Below are positions 19,802-60,419 of a stretch of 64,000 bases of DNA, piece after piece. Origin of the DNA: Heterodontus francisci (Eukaryota). The stretch's first letter is position 1; every line of letters begins with the position of its first letter. Location: assembly GCF_036365525.1 (NCBI RefSeq), contig NC_090394.1:70528741-70592740 (forward strand), given 5' to 3'. The translations under genes were made by a program, and so were the position numbers. The notes beneath the pieces are model-generated. The model saw only the letters and a list, made by a program, of their open reading frames with translations, had not been told where the DNA came from and ran no database searches.

Positions 19802-22800
19802 TCATAGAGTCATAGAAACTTACAGCAGGGAAGGAGGCCATTTGGCCCATCGTGTCCAAGCCAGCCAACAAGGAGCGATCCAGCCTAATCCCACTTCCCA
19901 GCTCTTGTCTGTAGCCTAGTAAGTTACGGCACTTCAAGTACATATCCAAGTACTTTTTACGTTATGGGGTTTCTGCCTCTACCACCTTTCCAGGCAGTGG
20001 ATTCCAGACCCCCACCACCCTCTGGGTGGAAATCTCTCCCCTTGAATCCCCTCTAAACCTCCTATCTCTTACCCTAAATCTATACTCACTGGTTATGGAC
20101 CCCTCAACCAAGGGGAATAGGATCTTCCTATCCACTCTATGTAGGCCCCTCATAATTTCATACGCTTTAATTAGGTCTCCCCTCTGCCTCCTCTTTTTCA
20201 AAGAAAACAACTGTAGCCTATCCAATCTTTCCTCATAATTAAATTCTCCAGTCCAGGCAACATCCTCGTAAATCTCCTTCGTACCCTCTCTAGTGCAGTG
20301 ACCAGAACTGTATGCAGCACTCCAGCTGTGGCCTAACTAGTGTTTATTACAGTTCCAGAATAACCTCCCAGCTCATATTTTATGCCTCAGCTAATAAAGG
20401 CGAGTATCCCATATGCCTTCTTGACCACCTTATCTACCTGTCAAGCCACCTTCATGCATCTGTGGACATGCAGTCCAAGGTCCCTCTATTCCTCTACACT
20501 TCTCAGTATCCTACCATTTATTGTGTATTCCCTTGCCTTGTCAGCCTTCCCCAAATGCATTACCCCACATGTCTCTGGATTGAACTCCATTTGCCACTGT
20601 TCTGCCTACCTGACCAGTCCATTGATATCTTCCTGCAGTCTAAAGCTTTCTTCTTCATTATCAACCACATGGGCAATTTTTGTATCGTCTGCAAACCTCT
20701 TCATCATACCCCCTACAGTCAAGTCCAAATCATTGATATATAACACAAACAGCAAGGGATATAGTACTGAGCCCTGAGGAACCCTACTGGAAACAGTCTT
20801 CCAGCCACAAAAACACCCATTGACCATTACCCTTTGCTTCCTGCCTCTTTGCCAATTTTGGGTCCAACTTGCCACTTTCCCTCAGATCCCATGAGCTTTT
20901 ACTTTCGTGACCAGTCTGCCAATTGGGATCTTATCAAAAGCCTTGCTAAAATCCATGTAGATGACACCAAATATACTATCCTCTTCGATTGTCCTTGTTA
21001 CCTCCTCAAAAAAATTCAATCATGTTAATCAGACACGATCTTCTCTTAACATATTGGTGCTGACTGTCTTTGATTAATCCATGTCTTTTGAAATGAAGAT
21101 TTATTCTGTTTCTCATAAATTTTTCCAATAATTTTCCCACCACCGAGGTTAGGCTGACTGGCCTGTAACTACTCGGTCTATCCCTTTTTCCCTTTTTAAA
21201 CAATGGTACAATGTTGGCTGTCCTCCAGTCCTCTGGCACCATGCCTGTAGCCATAGAGGATTGGAAAATGATGGTCAGAGCCTCTGCTACCTCTTCTCTT
21301 TCTTCCCTTAACAACCTAGGATACATTCCATCCAGGCCTGGGGATTTATCCACTTTCAAAGATGTTAAATCTCTTAATACTTCCTCTTTCACTATGTTAA
21401 TTTCATCTAATATTTCACACTACTCCTCCCTTGATTGCAATGTCTGTAAAATCCCTCTCCTTTGTGAAAACAAATGCAAAGTATTCATTAAGAACCTCTG
21501 CCTCCACATACAGGTTATCCTTATGGTCACTAATAGGCCCTGCTCTTTCTTTAGTTATCCTCTTGCTCATTATGTATGTAAAAAAATCTTTGGGTTTTCC
21601 GTTATTTTACTTGGCAATGTTTTTTCATGGCCTCTCTTTGCTTTCCTAATTTCCTTTTTAATTTAACTCCTGCACTTCTTGTGCTCCTCGAGGTTTTCTG
21701 CTGTGTTGAGCCCTTGGCATCTGTCATAAGCTTCCCTGTTTTTCTTTATCTTCTCCTTTAAGGCCCTTGACATCCAGGGCTTTCTTGATTTGTTAGTCCC
21801 ACCATTTTTTTCTTTAAGGGAACATATTTGCTCTGAATCCTCACTATCTCTTCCTTGAATGCCTCCCACTGATCTGGCACTGATTTACCTTCAAGTAGCT
21901 GTTTCCAGTCCACTTTAGCTAAATCATATCTCAGCTTAGTAAAATTAGCTTTTCCCCAATTGAGAACATTTATTCCTGGTCTATCTTTGTCCTTTTCCAT
22001 AACTACCCTAATCTAACTGAAATATGATCACTTCCAGCAACATGCTCCCCAACAGAAACCCTTCCACCTGCCCAGCTTCATTCCCTAAAATCAATTCCAA
22101 AACCTCCCCCTCTCTTGTTGGGCTTGCTCTGTACTGGCTAAAAAGTTCTCCTGAATAAATTTTAAGAATTCTGCTTCCTCTGTGCCCTTCACATTAATTC
22201 TATCCCTGTTAATATAAGGGTAGTTGACATCCCCACTATTACTGCCCTATTGTTTTTGAACTTCTGAGAGATTTACCCTCTGTTTGCGGGTCTATAGTAC
22301 ACTCCCAGTAGTGTGATTTCCCCTTTTTTGTTCTTCAGTTCAACCCATAAGGCCTCATTTGATGATCCTTCGACCATATCATCTCTCCTCACAGCTCTAA
22401 TTGTTTCTTTAATCAATATTGTGCCCCCCACCCTTTCTATCCCCCTTCTGTCTTGTCTAAAAACCCTGTAATCAGGAATGTTGAGCTGCCAGTCTGCCCT
22501 TCTTTCAGCCATGTCTCAGTAATAGCTATAATACCATACTTCCACACGTCAATCTGCCTTAGCTCATCTGCCTTATTCTTAGACTTCTTGCATTGAAGTA
22601 TCTACCATTAAGCACTGTCAAACTCCCTTGTTGTCTATTCTATAGCCGTTGTTTCCTCTGCCTTCCAAACATGCTTATTAATTTTCTGTCTTCCATTTCC
22701 AAATTTTCTTCTGCCCCTTCTGAATCTACTCACAGGTTCCCATCCCCCTACCAAACTAGTTTAAACCCTTCCCAACAGCACCAGCAAAGCCCCCTGCGAG

Positions 22801-24426: not shown

Positions 24427-27400
24427 CCAGGTTCATGGCACCGTGGCTGGCTCTGCTGTTCAGAAGGGCGGGAAAAAGAGTGGAAGGGCTATAGTCATAG
24501 GGGATTCGATTGTAAGGGGAGTAGATAGGCGGTTCTGTGGTCGAAAACGAGACTCCCGAATGGTATGTTGCCTCCCAGGTGCACGGGTCAGGGATGTCTC
24601 AGATCGGCTGCAGAACATTCTGAAGGGGGAGGGTGAACAGCCAGTTGTCATTGTGCACATAGGCACCAATGATATAGGTAAAAAACGGGATGAGGTCCTA
24701 CAAGCAGAATTTAGGGAGTTATGAGCCAAGTTAAAAAGTAGGACCTCAGAGGTAGTAATCTCAGGATTGCTACCAGTACCACGTGATAGTCAGAGTAGAA
24801 ATGAAAGAATAGTCAGGATGAATGCGTGGCTTGAGAGATGGTGCAGGAGGGAGGGGTTCAGATTTTTGGGACATGGGGACCGGTTCTGGGGGAGGTGGGA
24901 CTATTTCAAATTGGACGGTCTACACCAGGGACGGACTGGAACAAATGTCCTTGGGGGTGCTTTTGCTAACGCTGTTGGGGAGGGTTTAAACTAATGTGGC
25001 AGGGGGATGGGAACCAAATGAGGTCAGTGGAGAGTAAGGATGTAGTAACGAAAGCCTGTAAGGAACTAGATAATGAAGTCAGCGTGACTAAGGGAAAGAG
25101 TAGGCAGGGAGCAGATGATGAAAGCAAAGGGACTGGTGGTCTGAGGTGTATTTGTTTTAATGCAAGAAGTGTAGTAGGTAAGGCAGATGAACTTAGGGCT
25201 TGGATTAGTGCCTGGGAGTATGATGTTATTGCTATTACTGAGACTTGGTTAAGGGAAGGGCATGATTGGCAACTAAATATCCCAGGATACCGATGCTTCA
25301 GGCGGGATAGAGAGGGAGGTAAAAGGGGTGGAGGAGTTGCATTACTGGTCAAAGAGGATATCACAGCTGTGCTGAAGGAAGGCAATATGGGCAGAACTCA
25401 GAAATAGGAAGGGTGCGGTAACAATGTTGGGGCTGTACTACAGGCCTCCCAACAGCGAGCGTGAGATAGAGGTACAAATATGTAAACAGATTATGGAAAG
25501 CTGTAGGAGCAACAGGGTGGTGGTGATAGGAGATTTTAATTTTCCCAACATTGACTGGGATTCACTTCATGTTAGAGGTCTAGATGGAGCAGAATTTGTA
25601 AGGAGCATCCAGGAGGGTTTTCTAGAGCAGTATGTAAATAGTCCAACTCGGGAAGGGGCCATACTGGACCTGGTGTTGGGAAATGAGCCGGGCCAGGTGG
25701 TTGACGTTTCAGTAGGGGACTACTTTGGGAATAGTGATCACAATTCCGTAAGTTTTAGAATACTCATGGACAAAGACGAGAGTGGTCCTAAAGGAAGAGT
25801 GCTAAATTGGGGGAAGGCCAACTATACCAAAATTCGGCAGGAGCTGGGGAATGTAGATTGGGAGCAGCTGTTTGAAGGTAAATCCACTTTTGATATGTGG
25901 GAGGCTTTTAAAGAGAGGTTGATTAGCGTGCAGGAGAGACATGTTCCTGTGAAAATGAGGGGTAGAAATGGCAAGATTAGGGAACCATGGATGACAGGTG
26001 AAATTGTGAGACTAGCTAAGAGGAAAAAGGAAGCACACATAAGGTTTAGGCGGCTGAAGAAAGACGAAGCTTTGAAAGAATATCGGGATTGTAGGCGCAA
26101 TCTGAAACGAGGAATTAAGAGGGCTAAAAGGGGTCATGAAATATCTTTAGCAAACAGGGTTAAGGAAAATCCCAAAGCCTTTTATTCATATATAAGGAGC
26201 AAGAGGGTAACTAGAGAAAGGATTGGCCCACTCAAGGACAAAGGAGGAAAGTTATGCGTGGAGTCAGAGAAAATGGGTGAGATTCTAAACGAGTACTTTG
26301 CATCGGTATTCACCGAGGAGAGGGACATGGCGGATGTTGAGGTTAGGGACAGATGTTTGATTACTCTAGGTCAAGTCGGCATAAGGAGGGAGGAAGTGTT
26401 GGGTATTCTAAAAGGCATTAAGGTGGACAAGTCCCCAGGTCCGGATGGGATCTATCCCAGGTTACTGAGGGAAACGAGAGAGGAAATAGCTGGGGCCTTA
26501 ACAGATATCTTTGCAACATCCTTAAACACAGGTGAGGTCCTGGAGGACTGGAGAATTGCTAATGTTGTCCCCTTGCTTAAGAAGGGTAGCAGGGAAAATC
26601 CAGGTAATTATAGACCGGTGAGCCTGACGTCAGTGGTAGGGAAGCTGCTGGAGAAGATACTGAGGGATAGGATCTATTCCCATCTGGAAGAAAATGGGCT
26701 TATCAGTGATAGGCAACATGGTTTTGTGCAGGGAAGGTCATGTCTTACCAACTTAATAGAATTCTTTGAGGAAGTGACAAAGTTGATTGATGAGGGAAGG
26801 GCTGTAGATGTCATATACATGGACTTCAGTAAGGAGTTTGATAAGGTTCCCCATGGTAGGCTGATGGAGAAAGTGAAGGCGCATGGGGTCCAAGGTGTAC
26901 TAGCTAGATGGATAAAGAACTGGCTGGGCAACAGGAGACAGAGAGTAGCAGTGGAAGGGAGTTTCTCAAAATGGAGCGTGTGACCAGTGGTGTTCCACAG
27001 GGATCCGTGCTGGGACCACTGTTGTTTGTGATATACATAAATGATTTGGAGGAAAGTATAGGTGGTCTGATTAGCAAGTTTGCAGACGACACTAAGATTG
27101 GTGGAGTAGCAGATAGTGAAGGGGACTGTCAGAGAATACAGCAGAATATAGATAGATTGGAGAGTTGGGCAGAGAAATGGCAGATGGAGTTCAATCAGGG
27201 CAAATGCGAGGTGATGCATTTTGGAAGATCCAATTCAAGAGTGAACTATACAGTAAATGGAAAAGTCCTGGGGAAAATTGATGTACAGAGAGATTTGGGT
27301 GTTCAGGTCCATTGTTCCCTGAAGGTGGCAACGCAGGTCAATAGAGTGGTCAAGAAGGCATACGGCATGCTTTCCTTCATCGGACGGGGTATTGAGTACA

Positions 27401-28839: not shown

Positions 28840-29085
28840 TTCCACAGTACTATTTCGAAGGAGAGCTGGGGACTTCTCCCTGGTGTCCTGGTCAATATTT
28901 ATCCCGCAACCAACATCAGTAAAACAGAAAGTTTGGTCATTATTTTATTATTGATTGTGTGACATTGCTGTGTGCAAATTGGCTGCCATGTTCCTACATT
29001 ACAACAGTGACAACACTTCAATAGTACTTCATTGGTTGTAAATCGCTTTGGGAAGGTCGGGAAAGGCTCTCTATAAATGTAAGTT
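28840..29085 (+). mobile_element. Deu-SINE 3' half
   Basis: CTATTTCGAAGGAGAGCTGGGG...CAAATTGGCTGCC...TATAAATG. Confidence 0.7.
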
Positions 29086-41711: not shown

Positions 41712-41984
41712 GGAGTCATTCTAGAAGATGGTTGTGGTTGTTGGAGGTCAATCATCTCAGCCCCAGGCCATCACTGCAGGAGTCATTCTAGAAGATGGTT
41801 GTGGTTGTTGGAGGTCAATCATCTCAGCCCCAGGCCATCACTGTAGGAGTCATTCTAGAAGATGGTTGTGGTTGTTGGAGGTCAATCATCTCAGCCCCAG
41901 GCCATCACTGCAGGAGTCATTCTAGAAGATGGTTGTGGTTGTTAGAGGTCAATCATCTCAGCCCCAGGCCATCACTGCAGGAGT
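41712..41984 (+). repeat. 67-bp tandem repeat x4 inside the LINE RT region
   Basis: Units start at 41712, 41779, 41846 and 41913; near-identical; bounded by GGAGT. Confidence 0.95.
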
Positions 41985-42927: not shown

Positions 42928-43889
42928 AAGGTCCAGGACAGTAGACGCATGGGAACACCACCACCTGCAAGTTCCCCTCCAAATCACACACCATCCTGAC
43001 TTGGAACTATATCGCCGTTCTTTCACTGTCACTGCGTCAAAATCCTGGAATTCCCTTCCTAACAGCACTGTGGGTGTACCTACCCCAAATGGACTGCAGC
43101 AGTTCAAGAAGGCAGCTCACCACCACCTTCTCAAGGGCAATTAGGGATGGGCAATAAATGCTGGCCTGGCCAATGACGCTGACATTCCAAGAATGAATTT
43201 TTAAAAAACGTGTGCTTAGAATGTGGAACATGCTACTACAAGGGGTAGTTGAGGCAAATAGCATAAATGCATTTAAGGGGAAGCTAGATAAACACATGAG
43301 GGAGAAAGGAATAGAAGGATATGATGATAGGCTTAGTTGAAGAGGCAACAGGAGGAGCATAACCACCAGCATGGAGCAGTTGGGTCGCATGGTCTGTTTC
43401 TCTGCTGCAAATTCTATGTGATCAAATTTAGATGTACTTGCTTTCGTACAGAGTTACCAATCTCCCAGAAAGCTCCTTACAAGAGACATAATTGGCAGCA
43501 CCCTCAACTGCCTATCATTTTTACCCCTCCTTCCCCATCCTCCTTCCCCATCCTCCACCAAGAAACATGCATAAGGATGTTGATGGATTGTCATTTGTGT
43601 TTGCAGTTTGTTTGGATGTTTTGCTGATGGATTTTCCCTTTTTGAACTGGATAGTTTGCTCTTCCAAGTTCTTTCCGGCTGCAAGTTCTTTGATGTGGTT
43701 CTGTTGCAGTCGTTCCAATCAGAGTTCCTCGACTGGAAGTAAGGTGAACTTTCACCTAGCACCACACAAAGGTATTCCTGCCAATCATCACTTCCTAGTA
43801 TTGGCTCTTTGTGCATTGACAATTCTGTGTGAAAACAATTAAAAAGAATACATAAAAGTAACGTAACCTTGAATCATAGAATAGTTGCA

Positions 43890-54736: not shown

Positions 54737-56025
54737 CTCATTTCCCGGCGGAGCAGCAGGAGAAGGTAGCGACTCTTCGGTGGGTGAGTGAAGGCATCAG
54801 GAGCTGTGTTTTAAAAGTAAGTACTTACTGTTTTACTTACTGTTTTCCTTGTCTTTGAGTTTCTTTTGGCGCCGGAGGAACCGGAAGCTGGTCGGCAGCG
54901 AGGACTCCTGGGTAGGTATTTTCCTTAAAGGTGCGGAGCTCCGTGGACTCGGCCTCATTTCCCGGCGGAGCAGCAGGAGAAGGTAGCGACTCTTCGGTGG
55001 GTGAGTGAAGGCATCAGGAGCTGTGTTTTAAAAGTAAGTACTTACTGTTTTACTTACTGTTTTCCTTGTCTTTGAGTTTCTTTTGGCGCCGGAGGAACCG
55101 GAAGCTGGTCGGCAGCGAGGACTCCTGGGTAGGTATTTTCCTTAAAGGTGCGGAGCTCCGTGGACTCGGCCTCATTTCCCGGCGGAGCAGCAGGAGAAGG
55201 TAGCGACTCTTCGGTGGGTGAGTGAAGGCATCAGGAGCTGTGTTTTAAAAGTAAGTACTTACTGTTTTACTTACTGTTTTCCTTGTCTTTGAGTTTCTTT
55301 TGGCGCCGGAGGAACCGGAAGCTGGTCGGCAGCGAGGACTCCTGGGTAGGTATTTTCCTTAAAGGTGCGGAGCTCCGTGGACTCGGCCTCATTTCCCGGC
55401 GGAGCAGCAGGAGAAGGTAGCGACTCTTCGGTGGGTGAGTGAAGGCATCAGGAGCTGTGTTTTAAAAGTAAGTACTTACTGTTTTACTTACTGTTTTCCT
55501 TGTCTTTGAGTTTCTTTTGGCGCCGGAGGAACCGGAAGCTGGTCGGCAGCGAGGACTCCTGGGTAGGTATTTTCCTTAAAGGTGCGGAGCTCCGTGGACT
55601 CGGCCTCATTTCCCGGCGGAGCAGCAGGAGAAGGTAGCGACTCTTCGGTGGGTGAGTGAAGGCATCAGGAGCTGTGTTTTAAAAGTAAGTACTTACTGTT
55701 TTACTTACTGTTTTCCTTGTCTTTGAGTTTCTTTTGGCGCCGGAGGAACCGGAAGCTGGTCGGCAGCGAGGACTCCTGGGTAGGTATTTTCCTTAAAGGT
55801 GCGGAGCTCCGTGGACTCGGCCTCATTTCCCGGCGGAGCAGCAGGAGAAGGTAGCGACTCTTCGGTGGGTGAGTGAAGGCATCAGGAGCTGTGTTTTAAA
55901 AGTAAGTACTTACTGTTTTACTTACTGTTTTCCTTGTCTTTGAGTTTCTTTTGGCGCCGGAGGAACCGGAAGCTGGTCGGCAGCGAGGACTCCTGGGTAG
56001 GTATTTTCCTTAAAGGTGCGGAGCT
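54737..56025 (+). repeat. 217-bp monomer x ~5.9 (LINE 5' UTR, probable promoter)
   Basis: Units start at 54737, 54954, 55171, 55388, 55605 and 55822; no differences seen by eye; CpG-rich. Confidence 0.97.
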
Positions 56026-56202
56026 GAGTAAACCCGAGCCACTACACATGTAGTGTCTCCCACCCATCCTCCTCCTCTAACCTAATAATAAGACCCTTTT
56101 TACCCTCCTCCTCTAACCAAAAAGGACTGAGCAGGTAAGCTATTTACTGTTTTTGTTAATATCTATAGTTGTACTTAACTAAGGGGTAATTGAATAAAAG
56201 AA

Positions 56203-57120
56203 ATGGCAGCCAGTGTAGTGTATTGCTCCTCCTGCAGAATGTTCGAGGTGAGGGAAACCTCCGGTGGCCCTGCCGACTTCACCTGCTGGAAGTGCATCCG
56301 TCTCCAGCTCCTATCAGACCGTGTTAGGGAATTGGAGCTGGAGCTGGATGAACTGAGGATCATTCGGGAAGCTGAGGGGTTGATAGATAGAAGCTACACG
56401 GAGGTCGTTACTCCACAAATCAAAGACAGCTGGGTAACAGTTAGAGGTGGGAAGAGGTCAGTGCAGGGATCTCCTGTGGTCGTTCCCCTCAACAAGTATA
56501 CAGTTTTAGATACTGTTGGGGGGGACGGCCTATCGGGGGCAGGCTGCAGTGACCGGGCCTCTGGCACGGGGTCCTGCACTGTGGCTCAGAAGGGAAGGAG
56601 GGAGAATGGGAGAGCACTAGTCATCGGGGACTCGATGGTGAGGAGTACGGACAGGCGGTTCTGTGGGCGCAGGCGAGTCGCACGGATGGTTTGTTGCCTC
56701 CCTGGTGCCAGGGTCCGTGATGTTTGTGATCGCGTCTTCAGGATCCTTAAAGGGGAGGGGGAGCAGCCAGAGGTCGTGGTGCACATTGGCACCAACGACG
56801 TAGGAAGGAAGGGTGGCACAGATGTTAGAAGTGAGTTTAGGGAGTTAGGCTGGAAGCTGAAAGCTCGGACGGACAGAGTTGTTATCTCTGGTTTGTTGCC
56901 GGCGCCACGTGATAGTGAGGCTAGGAATAGGGAGAGAGCACAGCTGAACACGTGGCTGCAGGAATGGTGTAGGAGGGAGGGCTTCCAGTTCTTGGATAAT
57001 TGGACTGCCTTCTGGGGAAGATGGGACCTGTTCAAACAGGACGGGCTGCATCTGAACCAGAGGGGCACCAATATCCTGGGAGGGAGGTTTGCTAGTACTG
57101 TTCGGGAGGGTTTAAACTAG
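56203..57120 (+). CDS. CR1 ORF1p: Cys-rich zinc finger + coiled coil + SGNH/GDSL esterase domain
   Basis: CSSC...CWKC, LQLLSDRVRELELELDEL, VIGDSMV (block I), VHIGTND (block III), DGLHLN (block V). Confidence 0.93.
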   Translation: MAASVVYCSSCRMFEVRETSGGPADFTCWKCIRLQLLSDRVRELELELDELRIIREAEGLIDRSYTEVVTPQIKDSWVTVRGGKRSVQGSPVVVPLNKYTVLDTVGGDGLSGAGCSDRASGTGSCTVAQKGRRENGRALVIGDSMVRSTDRRFCGRRRVARMVCCLPGARVRDVCDRVFRILKGEGEQPEVVVHIGTNDVGRKGGTDVRSEFRELGWKLKARTDRVVISGLLPAPRDSEARNRERAQLNTWLQEWCRREGFQFLDNWTAFWGRWDLFKQDGLHLNQRGTNILGGRFASTVREGLN

Positions 57121-60011
57121 TTTGGGAGGGGGATGGGAACCGGACTTGTAATCCAGGGACCAGTGGGTCCACTCAGAAAGACAAAGAGTGTAGTGAGGTA
57201 TTGGGGAAGGTAGCACTGTCACAGAGGACAGATGGGCACGGAGAAGGGTTAAAGTGCGTATACTTCAACGCAAGAAGCATCAGGAATAAGGTGAGTGAAT
57301 TGAAGGCGTGGATGGGCACTTGGGACTACGATGTTGTGGCCATCACTGAAACGTGGATAGGTGAGGGGGAGGAATGGTTTTTGGAGGTACCTGGTTATAG
57401 ATGTTTTCATAAGATTAGGAATGGTGGTAAAAGAGGTGGGGGGGTGGCATTGTTAGTTAGAAATAGTGTAACAACTGCTGAAAGAATTTTCGAGGAGGAT
57501 CTGCCGACTGAGGCACTGTGGGTTGAGGTCAGGAACAGGAAAGGAGCAGTCACCTTGATGGGAGTTTTCTATAGGCCCCCCAATAGCAGCAGGGAGGTGG
57601 AAGAGCAGATTGGGAAACAGATTTTGGAAAGGAGCAGAAGTCACAGGGTAGTAATTATGGGGGATTTCAACTTCCCAAATATTGATTGGCAACTCTTTAG
57701 ATCGAATAGTTTGGATGGGGTAGTGTTTGTGCAGTATGTCCAGGAAGCTTTTCTGACTCAGTATGTAGACTGCCCGACCAGAGGGGAGGCAATATTGGAT
57801 TTGGTACTAGGTAATGAACCAGGGCAAGTGATAGAGCTGTTGGTGGGCGAGCACTTTGGAGATAGTGATCACAATTCTGTAGCATTCACTGTGGTAATGG
57901 AGAGGGATAGGTATGTGCAACAGGGCAAGGTTTACAATTGGGGGAAGGGTAGATATGATGCTGTCAGGCAGGAACTGAGGAGCATAAGTTGGGAGCATAT
58001 GCTGGCAGGGAAGGGCACGGTCGAAATGTGGAACTTTTTCAAGGAGCAGATAGTAGGGGCCATTGATAAGCATGTCCCTGTCAGACAGGGAAGGGATGGT
58101 CATGTGAGGGAACCGTGGTTGACAAGAGAGGTTGAGAGTCTTGTTAGGAAGAAGAAGGATGCGTATATAAAGTTGAGGAAAAAGGGCACAGGCATAGCTC
58201 TGGAGGGATACAAGATGGCCAGGAAGGATCTGAGGAAAGGGATTAGGAGAGCTAAGAGAGGGCATGAAAAATGCTTGGCGGGTAGGATAAAAGAAAACCC
58301 CAAGGCCTTTTACGCGTATGTCAGAAATATGAGGATGACTAGGGGGACCATAGGTCCGGTCAAGGACAATAGCGGGAGACTGTGTGTTGAGCCGGAAGAG
58401 ATAAGTGAGGTTTTGAATGAGTACTTCTCTTCGGTATTTACGAATGAGAAGGGGTGTATTACTGAAGAGGACGGTGTGAAACAGACTGGTAAGCTCGAGG
58501 AAGTGCTCGTTAGGAGGGAAGATGTGTTGGGGTTTTTGAATAACTTGAAGATAGACAAGTCTCCCGGGCCTGACGGGGTATATCCAAGGATGTTATGGGA
58601 AGCAAGGGATGAAATTGCAGAGCCGCTGGCAATGATCTTTTCATCTTCTCTGCTGACGGGGGTGGTACCAGGTGATTGGAGGGTGGCAAATGTTGTGCCC
58701 CTGTTCAAGAAAGGGAATAGGAACAACCCTGGGAATTACAGGCCAGTTAGTCTTACTTCGGTGGTAGGCAAGTTGATGGAAAAGGTGCTGAGGGATAGGA
58801 TTTCTGAGCATCTGGAAAGACACTGCTTGATTCGGGACAGTCAGCACGGTTTTGTGAGGGGTAGGTCTTGCCTCACAAGCCTGATTGAATTCTTTGAGCA
58901 GGTGACCAAGCAAGTGGATGAGGGTAAACCAGTGGATGTGGTGTACATGGATTTTAGTAAGGCATTTGATAAGGTCCCCCATGGTAGACTTATGGAGAAA
59001 GTCAGGAGGCATGGGATAGTGGGGAATGTGGCCAGTTGGATTAAGAATTGGCTAACTGATAGAAGGCAGAGAGTGGTCTTAGATGGTAAATACTCAGCCT
59101 GGAGCCCAGTTACCAGTGGCGTGCCGCAGGGATCAGTTCTGGGTCCTCTCCTGTTTGTGATTTTTATTAACGACTTGGATGAGGAAGTCGAAGGGTGGGT
59201 CAGTAAATTTGCAGATGATACAAAGGTTGGTGGAGTTGTGGATACCGAGGAGGGCTATTGTCGTCTGCAAAGGGACTTGGATAGGTTGCAGTGCTGGGCT
59301 GAAAAGTGGCAGATGGAGTTTAACCCTGAAAAGTGTGAGGTCGTCCATTTTGGAAGGACAAACATGAATGCAAAATACTGGGTTAACGGTAGGGTTCTTG
59401 GGCATGTGGAGGAGCAGAGAGACCTTGGGGTCTATGTGCATAGATCATTGAAAGTTGCAACTCAAGTGGATAGGGCTGTGAAGAAGGCATATGGGGTGTT
59501 AGCGTTCATTAGCAGAGGGATTGAATTTAAGAGCCGTGAGGTGATGATGCAGCTGTACAGGACCTTGGTAAGGCCTCATTTGGAGTACTGTGTGCAGTTC
59601 TGGTCGCCTCATTTTAGGAAGGATGTGGAAGCCTTGGAGAGGGTGCAGAGGAGATTTACCAGGATGTTGCCTGGAATGGAGAATAAGTCTTACGAGGAAA
59701 GGCTGAACATTCTAGGCCTCTTCTCATTAGAAAGGAGAAGGATGAGGGGTGACATGATAGAGGTTTATAAGATGATCAGGGGAATAGATAGGGTAGACAG
59801 TCAGAAACTTTTTCCCCGGGTGGAGCAAAGCGTTACAAGGGGTCATAAATTTAAGGTGAAGGGTGGGAGATATAAGGGGGATGTCAGGGGAAGGTTCTTT
59901 ACCCAGAGAGTGGTCGAGGCATGGAATGCCTTGCCCGGGGAAGTTGTTGAGTCAGAAACTTTAGGGACTTTCAAAAGGCTTTTGGATAGGTATATGGATA
60001 AAGGAGAATGA
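57111..60011 (+). CDS. CR1 ORF2p: APE endonuclease + reverse transcriptase (frame open from the slippery site; first AUG 57312)
   Basis: YFNARS, ITETW, MGDFN, LDLVL, SDH; KSPGPDG, YRPVSL, QHGF, DFSKAFD, PQGSVLGP, FADD; no stops from 57096 to 60008. Confidence 0.93.
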   Translation, partial: FKLVWEGDGNRTCNPGTSGSTQKDKECSEVLGKVALSQRTDGHGEGLKCVYFNARSIRNKVSELKAWMGTWDYDVVAITETWIGEGEEWFLEVPGYRCFHKIRNGGKRGGGVALLVRNSVTTAERIFEEDLPTEALWVEVRNRKGAVTLMGVFYRPPNSSREVEEQIGKQILERSRSHRVVIMGDFNFPNIDWQLFRSNSLDGVVFVQYVQEAFLTQYVDCPTRGEAILDLVLGNEPGQVIELLVGEHFGDSDHNSVAFTVVMERDRYVQQGKVYNWGKGRYDAVRQELRSISWEHMLAGKGTVEMWNFFKEQIVGAIDKHVPVRQGRDGHVREPWLTREVESLVRKKKDAYIKLRKKGTGIALEGYKMARKDLRKGIRRAKRGHEKCLAGRIKENPKAFYAYVRNMRMTRGTIGPVKDNSGRLCVEPEEISEVLNEYFSSVFTNEKGCITEEDGVKQTGKLEEVLVRREDVLGFLNNLKIDKSPGPDGVYPRMLWEARDEIAEPLAMIFSSSLLTGVVPGDWRVANVVPLFKKGNRNNPGNYRPVSLTSVVGKLMEKVLRDRISEHLERHCLIRDSQHGFVRGRSCLTSLIEFFEQVTKQVDEGKPVDVVYMDFSKAFDKVPHGRLMEKVRRHGIVGNVASWIKNWLTDRRQRVVLDGKYSAWSPVTSGVPQGSVLGPLLFVIFINDLDEEVEGWVSKFADDTKVGGVVDTEEGYCRLQRDLDRLQCWAEKWQMEFNPEKCEVVHFGRTNMNAKYWVNGRVLGHVEEQRDLGVYVHRSLKVATQVDRAVKKAYGVLAFISRGIEFKSREVMMQLYRTLVRPHLEYCVQFWSPHFRKDVEALERVQRRFTRMLPGMENKSYEERLNILGLFSLERRRMRGDMIEVYKMIRGIDRVDSQKLFPRVEQSVTRGHKFKVKGGRYKGDVRGRFFTQRVVEAWNALPGEVVESETLGTFKRLLDRYMDKGE

Positions 60012-60419
60012 TGGGGTATAGATTAAATTGTCCTTGACAGAGGACAAAGGATCGGCACAACATTGTGGGCCGAAGGGCCTGTTCTGTGCTGTATGTTCTA
60101 TGTTCTATGTTCTATAAGTGAGGGACAATCATCAATAAAAACACACTGTTCATTGGACAAAATATGTTGGTAAAGCAAGTAGTGATGCAGGATACTTGTG
60201 TACCATGGCATGATAAGTAAGTGCAAACCTGTTGGATGTCAAAAAACAATGATGTTGGTTAGGCAGGAGCCAAGGCATTTACTTTGTAACCAGGCAACCT
60301 GACAAGCTTGAAAGAGATACAAAAGTCATCTGCTCCAGCACCACACTAAAGCAAACACACAACACAATGGATCTTCTTTCAGGTAAGTATTCACAAAGCA
60401 TGATGCCGAGTCACAAATA

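Follow-up and report, generated by a model that had tools for sequence, protein, structure and literature searches.

A predicted -1 frameshift cassette at the ORF1-ORF2 junction of vertebrate CR1 retrotransposons

How the second open reading frame (ORF) of a long interspersed nuclear element (LINE) is translated is an open question (PMC3894237). It is raised here by a full-length CR1 LINE (~54737-60115, forward strand) in a 64,000-nucleotide stretch of the Heterodontus francisci genome (contig NC_090394.1, positions 70,528,741 to 70,592,740), which was analysed as a whole and is called the window below. Both ORFs of the element are intact: ORF1 extends from stop to stop over 56194-57120, with its start ATG at 56203, and ORF2 is open over 57096-60011. 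A preliminary description of this DNA had proposed that ribosomes shift by -1 at a U_UUA_AAC heptamer directly before the ORF1 stop, producing a fusion of about 1270 aa, and our comparative test supports this core proposal. CR1 ORF2 is probably made by programmed -1 frameshifting (probability about 0.83), which would give an esterase-APE-reverse transcriptase (RT) fusion of 305 + 964 = 1,269 aa. As far as sequence comparison can tell, the junction is a real and deeply conserved cassette in canonical CR1. The position of ORF2 in the -1 frame of ORF1 was confirmed, the junction peptide given earlier follows from both frames, and the coordinates of the TAG at 57093, the heptamer, the stop, the ATG at 57312, the TTG at 57201, the hairpin arms and the G-block at 57124 all hold.

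The junction and its conservation

As shown in Table 1, the heptamer of the window copy lies in the ORF1 frame within the overlap of the two ORFs, and the ORF that follows is read in the -1 frame and has no start codon kept across lineages. In-phase X_XXY_YYZ words occur in ORF1 only at the very end of its 305 codons, namely G_GGU_UUA and U_UUA_AAC; the former is a possible auxiliary shift site. On mammalian ribosomes, few heptamers shift as readily as U_UUA_AAC (PMC5009743). A search of the window with the junction 12-mer, allowing one mismatch, returned four matches against 0.34 expected; three are CR1 junctions and one (48880) is unrelated. Two divergent copies had been said to share heptamer, stop and G-block with the intact element. 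The heptamer is indeed present in both, while the stop at 24985 is TAA, not TAG. There the sequence TAATG creates a stop-overlapping AUG in frame with ORF2, which the preliminary description had missed.

In order to measure conservation within the shark genome, we used as an anchor the upstream DGLHLN codons, which are independent of the heptamer and occur at 43,448 places genome-wide. Leu-Asn codons follow 54 nt later at 28,885 of these, and in 26,743 (92.6%) they are spelled T_TTA_AAC; the Leu-Asn inside DGLHLN itself, 60 nt upstream, is spelled in this way at 205 of the 43,448 places. TTA is a rare Leu codon in the element (3 of 26 in ORF1 and 7 of 75 in ORF2). The first T of the heptamer fills the wobble position of a codon that differs between lineages and specifies Gly, Ala, Ser, Asp, Thr, Val or Cys (Gly, Ala, Ser, Asp, Thr or Val in a table of 22 shark lineages), and the third positions neighbouring the heptamer vary freely across lineages. 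Presence of TTAAAC was a condition for choosing these 22 lineages, many of which came from heptamer-pattern lists; heptamer invariance is therefore partly built into the table, and we used it for the flanks. The heptamer is retained in 28 of 30 copies sampled on DGLHLN alone, 7 of these 30 belonging to a single tandem array. Eleven places without Leu-Asn at 54 nt comprise three interrupted by other sequence and eight with an upstream indel and the heptamer whole or altered. With a looser anchor, 572 copies have a first base other than T; the 100 listed are scattered across many subfamilies, as expected from decay after insertion. Heptamer, stop and the G-tract described below occur together at 24,429 places in the genome.

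The same junction was found beyond sharks. The DxxH motif is present in 62 of 102 ORF1 homologs, and 49 of these 62, frog entries (Hyla, Xenopus) included, end in Leu-Asn, in most cases at a distance of 26 residues from the Asp. The ORF1 alignment shows no change at Leu304 and Asn305, the residues that close the SGNH fold; in four database proteins from frame-shifted copies, Phe-Lys-Leu, the -1 reading of the heptamer, stands at that place. In the consensus rows of the supplement of Stuart et al. 2026 (PMC13343379), of which the first 400 letters each were covered and which show presence, not the share of families, TTAAAC plus a stop occurs at 31 places. Eighteen are ORF junctions, as judged by eye, and the other 13 lie in untranslated regions (UTRs) or other families. 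The first T, which was not part of the search, is present in all 18. Seventeen are CR1 rows from 11 vertebrates (alligator, saltwater crocodile, bearded dragon, bullfrog, coelacanth, bowfin, elephant shark, stingray, sawfish, catshark and dogfish), and the eighteenth is a halosaur row labelled Crack; in the turtle, tuatara and bichir rows the 400 letters do not cover the junction.

Of 36 metagenome loci 22 were examined, nine with the junction, one decayed, six ending too early and six without such a junction. Contigs with bird-type CR1, a label that says nothing of the contig host, were found by upstream protein motifs, and TTTAAAC followed by TAG was present in 8 of 8. In a distant CR1-like locus (L061, 679-700), G_TTA_AAC is accompanied by two TAG stops and a G-rich tract, and the -1 frame runs on open into APE; equine arteritis virus has G_UU(A) as a natural variant (PMC5009743). 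Viral contigs gave no relatives among 80 stretches, and prokaryote contigs gave five loci, the single one examined ending before the junction. Taken together, the comparative check suggested earlier came out in favour of the shift: the heptamer is fixed at its synonymous positions and the two reading frames keep their offset, both across subfamilies and across vertebrates.

Table 1. Features of the CR1 elements in the window, with strand and supporting evidence
Feature	Position	Strand	Evidence
5' UTR array, 5.9 monomers of 217 bp, 100% matches	54737..56025	+	tandem-repeat period
ORF1, 305 aa: Cys-rich N-terminus, heptad-Leu stretch, SGNH esterase, Leu-Asn-stop end	56203..57120	+	PF13472, E 1.3e-14
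Last -1-frame stop (TAG) before the shift site, limiting the ORF overlap to 25 nt	57093..57095	+	
Second in-phase heptamer G_GGU_UUA, overlapping the main one	57108..57114	+	10/22 shark lineages, 0/9 others
Slippery heptamer U_UUA_AAC, predicted -1 shift site	57111..57117	+	
ORF2 via predicted -1 shift, 964 aa, APE endonuclease + RT	57117..60011	+	PF03372, PF00078
AUG-less linker from shift site to endonuclease; sequence weakly constrained, frame kept	57117..57266	+	
ORF1 stop directly 3' of heptamer; position fixed, identity varies (TAG/TAA/TGA)	57118..57120	+	
Conserved unstructured G-tract (G4-5, two bases, G3), 11 nt after heptamer, candidate 3' stimulator	57128..57137	+	
Small hairpin (GGACC/GGTCC), present here, not conserved	57157..57170	+	
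(TGTTCTA)n microsatellite 3' tail, 5.1 copies, without poly(A)	60080..60115	+	tandem-repeat search
Junction of second CR1 subfamily, decayed copy; heptamer then TAATG stop-start overlap	24985..24996	+	
Junction of third CR1 copy, decayed; heptamer + TAG	22756..22765	-	

The element has the features of canonical vertebrate CR1, namely an SGNH esterase ORF1, an ORF2 with APE and RT, and a 3' microsatellite tail without poly(A); an esterase ORF1 is a stated feature of this group (PMC13343379). Its nearest named ORF1 relatives come from sharks and rays, its ORF2 endonuclease aligns with L1 endonuclease structures, and the junctions resemble, by eye, published rows labelled CR1. The 371-bp junction is identical at 10 places in the 6.0 Gb genome, the window copy included, and nearly identical at an 11th. 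As 10 places are identical over 371 bp, the family is very young, and since the window thus holds an intact member of a young family, the claim is directly testable. The 217-bp monomers are likely promoter repeats, and the array resembles the monomer promoters of rodent L1. Here it sits in an element that bears ORF1; such arrays are mentioned only for ORF1-less elements in the part of Stuart et al. 2026 consulted (PMC13343379).

Several further observations concern the surroundings of these sequences. The window also holds a 67-bp tandem repeat at 41712-41984 (4.1 copies, 98% identity). Seven near-identical CR1 junctions (L031-L037; G000 C1, 70-185 kb) are spaced by ~18.5 kb near a contig start and form a large tandem segmental repeat, and at another locus (L059) the junction is duplicated in tandem, with two heptamers 35 nt apart. 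Two shark-type CR1 proteins (P0001, P0110) are filed as Pseudomonas and Carnobacterium in public databases, where contamination is likely. In a distant LINE with an SGNH ORF1 (L081, ~1319-1340), ORF1 and APE stand in the same frame and are split by a single TGA followed by CTA, a readthrough-type context; at this single locus a Met occurs 36 codons after the TGA.

The downstream G-tract and the linker

What would make ribosomes shift at this site? The preliminary description had pointed to a G-block and to a hairpin. The first GGG of that block is subfamily-specific, position 57126 being C in most relatives, while the tract behind it is conserved and is the likely 3' element. At the three third-codon positions of the tract, G is found in 21, 20 and 18 of 22 shark lineages and in 7, 7 and 6 of 7 bird-type lineages. 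GGG accounts for only 40 of 87 Gly codons in ORF2, yet G stands at the third positions of the tract in sharks and bird-type elements alike, and the pattern of the tract occurs once among 2,798 other ORF2 positions. As for the four stackable G-tracts of a quadruplex, none of 31 lineages has the three-tier pattern, and 21 of the 30 full-length ones show a two-tier pattern, compared with 12 of 73 background windows of ORF2. The hairpin at 57157-57170 was rejected as a stimulator, for the sequence around it is not conserved: contigs from many subfamilies pile up over 57088-57141 and part ways beyond 57141. Long-range pairing was likewise rejected as a general feature. A C-rich stretch of the 5' UTR (~56056-56080, ~1,050 nt upstream) pairs with the G-tract at -29 kcal/mol, and such a partner was found only in the window copy and in one other (L019) of 17 junctions scored. 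The adjacent stop and the unstructured G-tract are the likely stimulators; as some published rows lack the G-tract, it is less universal than heptamer plus stop.

We propose that translation would mostly end at the ORF1 stop, and that a minority of ribosomes would read on after slipping back by one base on U_UUA_AAC, where tRNA-Leu would re-pair from UUA to UUU and tRNA-Asn from AAC to AAA. With less support, the pause may come from slow termination at the adjacent stop together with a G-tract bound by protein or rRNA; a stem-loop or pseudoknot forms no part of the proposed pause. Such a shift might serve to hold the ratio of ORF2 to ORF1 product low and fixed and, as in Gag-Pol, to keep the enzyme tethered to the particle of ORF1p.

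The linker between heptamer and endonuclease keeps its frame. Nine subfamilies have at least five copies; in the eight for which a modal linker length could be set, it is a multiple of 3, namely, counted from the heptamer to the NARS Asn, 162, 162, 156, 144, 162, 144, 162 and 177/174 nt. Old single copies are often off by 1-2 nt. Fifteen lineages have open linkers of 117-270 nt, with 2-9 stops in each other frame, and in 12 of these lineages a stop ends the -1 frame 1-5 codons upstream of the heptamer. In 5 of the 15, the window copy included, no Met precedes the APE motif. The first ORF2 AUG of the window copy (57312) is residue 73. The match to exonuclease III begins at residue 53, and ORF2 residue 64 is the partner of residue 22 of L1 endonuclease. 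The first AUG therefore lies ~20 residues inside the fold, and a start there would remove the first strand and the conserved Asn, which has a catalytic role.

Other possible routes to ORF2

Other ways of making ORF2 have to be weighed against the shift, together with the findings that speak against it. The downstream fold of the window copy is no better than shuffles (z = +1.08), the mean z over 30 lineages is 0.1 with z < -2 in only 1 of 30, and an Rfam search gave 0 matches. The G-tract is absent or displaced in two dogfish rows and in the bowfin and halosaur rows. No CR1 family with a wholly different X_XXY_YYZ word was found, the single L061 locus being the only variant; a few large subfamilies supply the bulk of the copies counted, and common ancestry links the lineages. 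Some Met occurs in the linker of 10 of the 15 open lineages, and codon-level constraint in the linker is weak, with proportions of nonsynonymous differences (pN) of 0.29-0.56 versus synonymous ones (pS) of 0.36-0.80 (APE pN 0.08-0.18). UAAUG is found in the 24985 subfamily, which by an eye count makes up 32 of the first 100 of the 24,429 matches, and in the published shark rows ScyCan_CR1-1a, SquAca_CR1-17a and SquAca_CR1-6c.

This last point bears on termination-reinitiation, in which ribosomes would restart in the -1 frame on a codon overlapping the stop, be it AUG or, in other lineages, a near- or non-cognate one, and release a separate ORF2p, as in SART1 and LINE-1. SART1 uses UAAUG and needs downstream RNA (PMC5972666, PMC10275272), LINE-1 ORF2 initiation is described as AUG-independent (PMC5009743) and calicivirus reinitiation tolerates changes of the start codon (PMC5972666). 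GUG or AUU stands at the overlapping codon in 4 of 15 open lineages; an open, in-frame linker is likewise predicted. Reinitiation, however, needs no X_XXY_YYZ word, and all seven bases are kept even in UAAUG lineages. No constraint is seen at the overlapping codon, which reads GTT, GTG, ATT, GTC, AAT, ATG, GCT, GGT or GAC; the window copy reads TAG TT, and AUG stands at that place in 1 of the 15 open lineages. The known termination upstream ribosomal binding site (TURBS) motif lies upstream of the stop (PMC5972666), whereas UGGGA is downstream here and absent from bird-type loci. Reinitiation is the most serious rival of the shift, and we consider it unlikely. The 24985-type subfamily, with heptamer and UAAUG, is abundant and could use both processes, and shifting and reinitiation could coexist in UAAUG lineages.

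We regard it as very improbable that ORF2 has its own RNA or start, through splicing, an internal promoter or a CUG, GUG or UUG codon in the linker. TTTAAA is palindromic and TATA-like, the G-tract could be a factor site, and in-frame near-cognate codons occur at 57201, 57216 and 57279; a similar TTTAAAC+TAR also stands in the 5' UTR of two related dogfish rows. The AG of the stop is not conserved, TAA being present in 13 of 22 shark lineages, and a splice acceptor at the ORF1 TAG was rejected on this ground. From a run presumed to be RNA, whose contigs show presence only, a 1,381-nt contig spans 56751-57700 without a gap, and none of the 4 listed contig joints has GT..AG ends. A start inside the linker would free the length upstream of it, and the retention of multiples of 3 counts against this. 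Just as little weight falls to the idea that the motif is kept for another purpose, such as a requirement of the protein for Leu-Asn, a site for RNA packaging or ORF1p binding, slippage of the polymerase or mere common descent, with the frame changed by other means. Leu304 and Asn305 do not vary and the subfamilies are related by descent; a protein need, however, cannot fix synonymous bases, TTA is rare in both ORFs, and neighbouring third positions are free. Moreover, the T3 and A3 runs are shorter than the 9-base runs of transcription slippage (PMC5009743), and the presumed RNA contigs show no indel at the site. A natural single-ORF fusion was also looked for, and no full esterase-APE-RT protein was present among 39 longer proteins, which is weak evidence either way. 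Two proteins (P0103, P0084) join SGNH to APE; they look like gene models on decayed copies and were set aside.

Relation to known systems

In most vertebrates, CR1-group elements dominate among the retrotransposons (PMC13343379), and frameshifting to make a polymerase is standard in viruses and elements with long terminal repeats (LTRs). If the proposal is true, the conserved shift site would settle CR1 ORF2 translation by a fused protein, opposite to LINE-1; ORF2 annotation would change, with the enzyme beginning before its first AUG; a lipid-binding esterase would be tied to an RT; and a genome would hold tens of thousands of viral-type shift sites. The missing RNA structure points toward an unusual stimulator. 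A wider claim would be that one -1 cassette has served vertebrate CR1 since before the split of sharks and bony vertebrates, with a stimulator of a type not described so far (a stop plus a G-tract read by protein, possibly ORF1p or a host G-tract binder, or by rRNA) and a Gag-Pol-like esterase-RT fusion; this combination we advance tentatively, and hold it to be somewhat doubtful.

Canonical vertebrate CR1 as described by Stuart et al. 2026 (PMC13343379) has the same esterase ORF1, the same APE and RT in ORF2 and the same junction; a term search of the main text found no statement on ORF2 translation or frameshifting. CR1 is likewise not mentioned in the portion searched of the frameshifting review (PMC5009743). 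We found no proposal of CR1 frameshifting in the literature covered, outside which lie the 1997 chicken and turtle CR1 work, Kapitonov and Jurka 2003, Kojima 2005 and Repbase, which may mention it. Among non-LTR elements, TRE5-A and TRE3-A of Dictyostelium are APE-type and are said to need a -1 frameshift for ORF2 (PMC5911963). Unlike CR1, they belong to the L1 clade, live in an amoeba and have no esterase ORF1 described in that source. SART1 and LINE-1 face the same ORF2 problem on a bicistronic RNA, and the UAAUG of SART1 recurs in some CR1 lineages. In contrast to the proposed CR1 fusion, both give a separate ORF2p, with a 63-nt spacer in LINE-1 (PMC5972666, PMC10275272).

For the stimulator, the nearest likeness is the nsp2 site in the virus that causes porcine reproductive and respiratory syndrome (PRRSV), where nsp1beta and poly(C)-binding protein act on CCCANCUCC, a similarly short unstructured motif 11 nt 3' (PMC5009743). 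Unlike that motif, the one in CR1 is G-rich, the likeness is in spacing only, and a binder of the CR1 motif is only a candidate. Semliki Forest virus also has an unstructured stimulator, which may pair with rRNA (PMC5009743). In its overall plan, the CR1 junction resembles coronavirus and arterivirus ORF1a/1b and retroviral gag-pol, which share the same in-phase U_UUA_AAC, an abundant upstream protein and a polymerase in the -1 frame (PMC5009743). Unlike these, CR1 is a non-LTR element, and by computed folding of local stems it has no stable stem-loop 5-9 nt downstream; a conserved C-rich partner, as a pseudoknot would need, was looked for and not found. A Pfam search of the element's proteins gave no protease domain, and the CR1 fusion, if made, would therefore likely stay intact.

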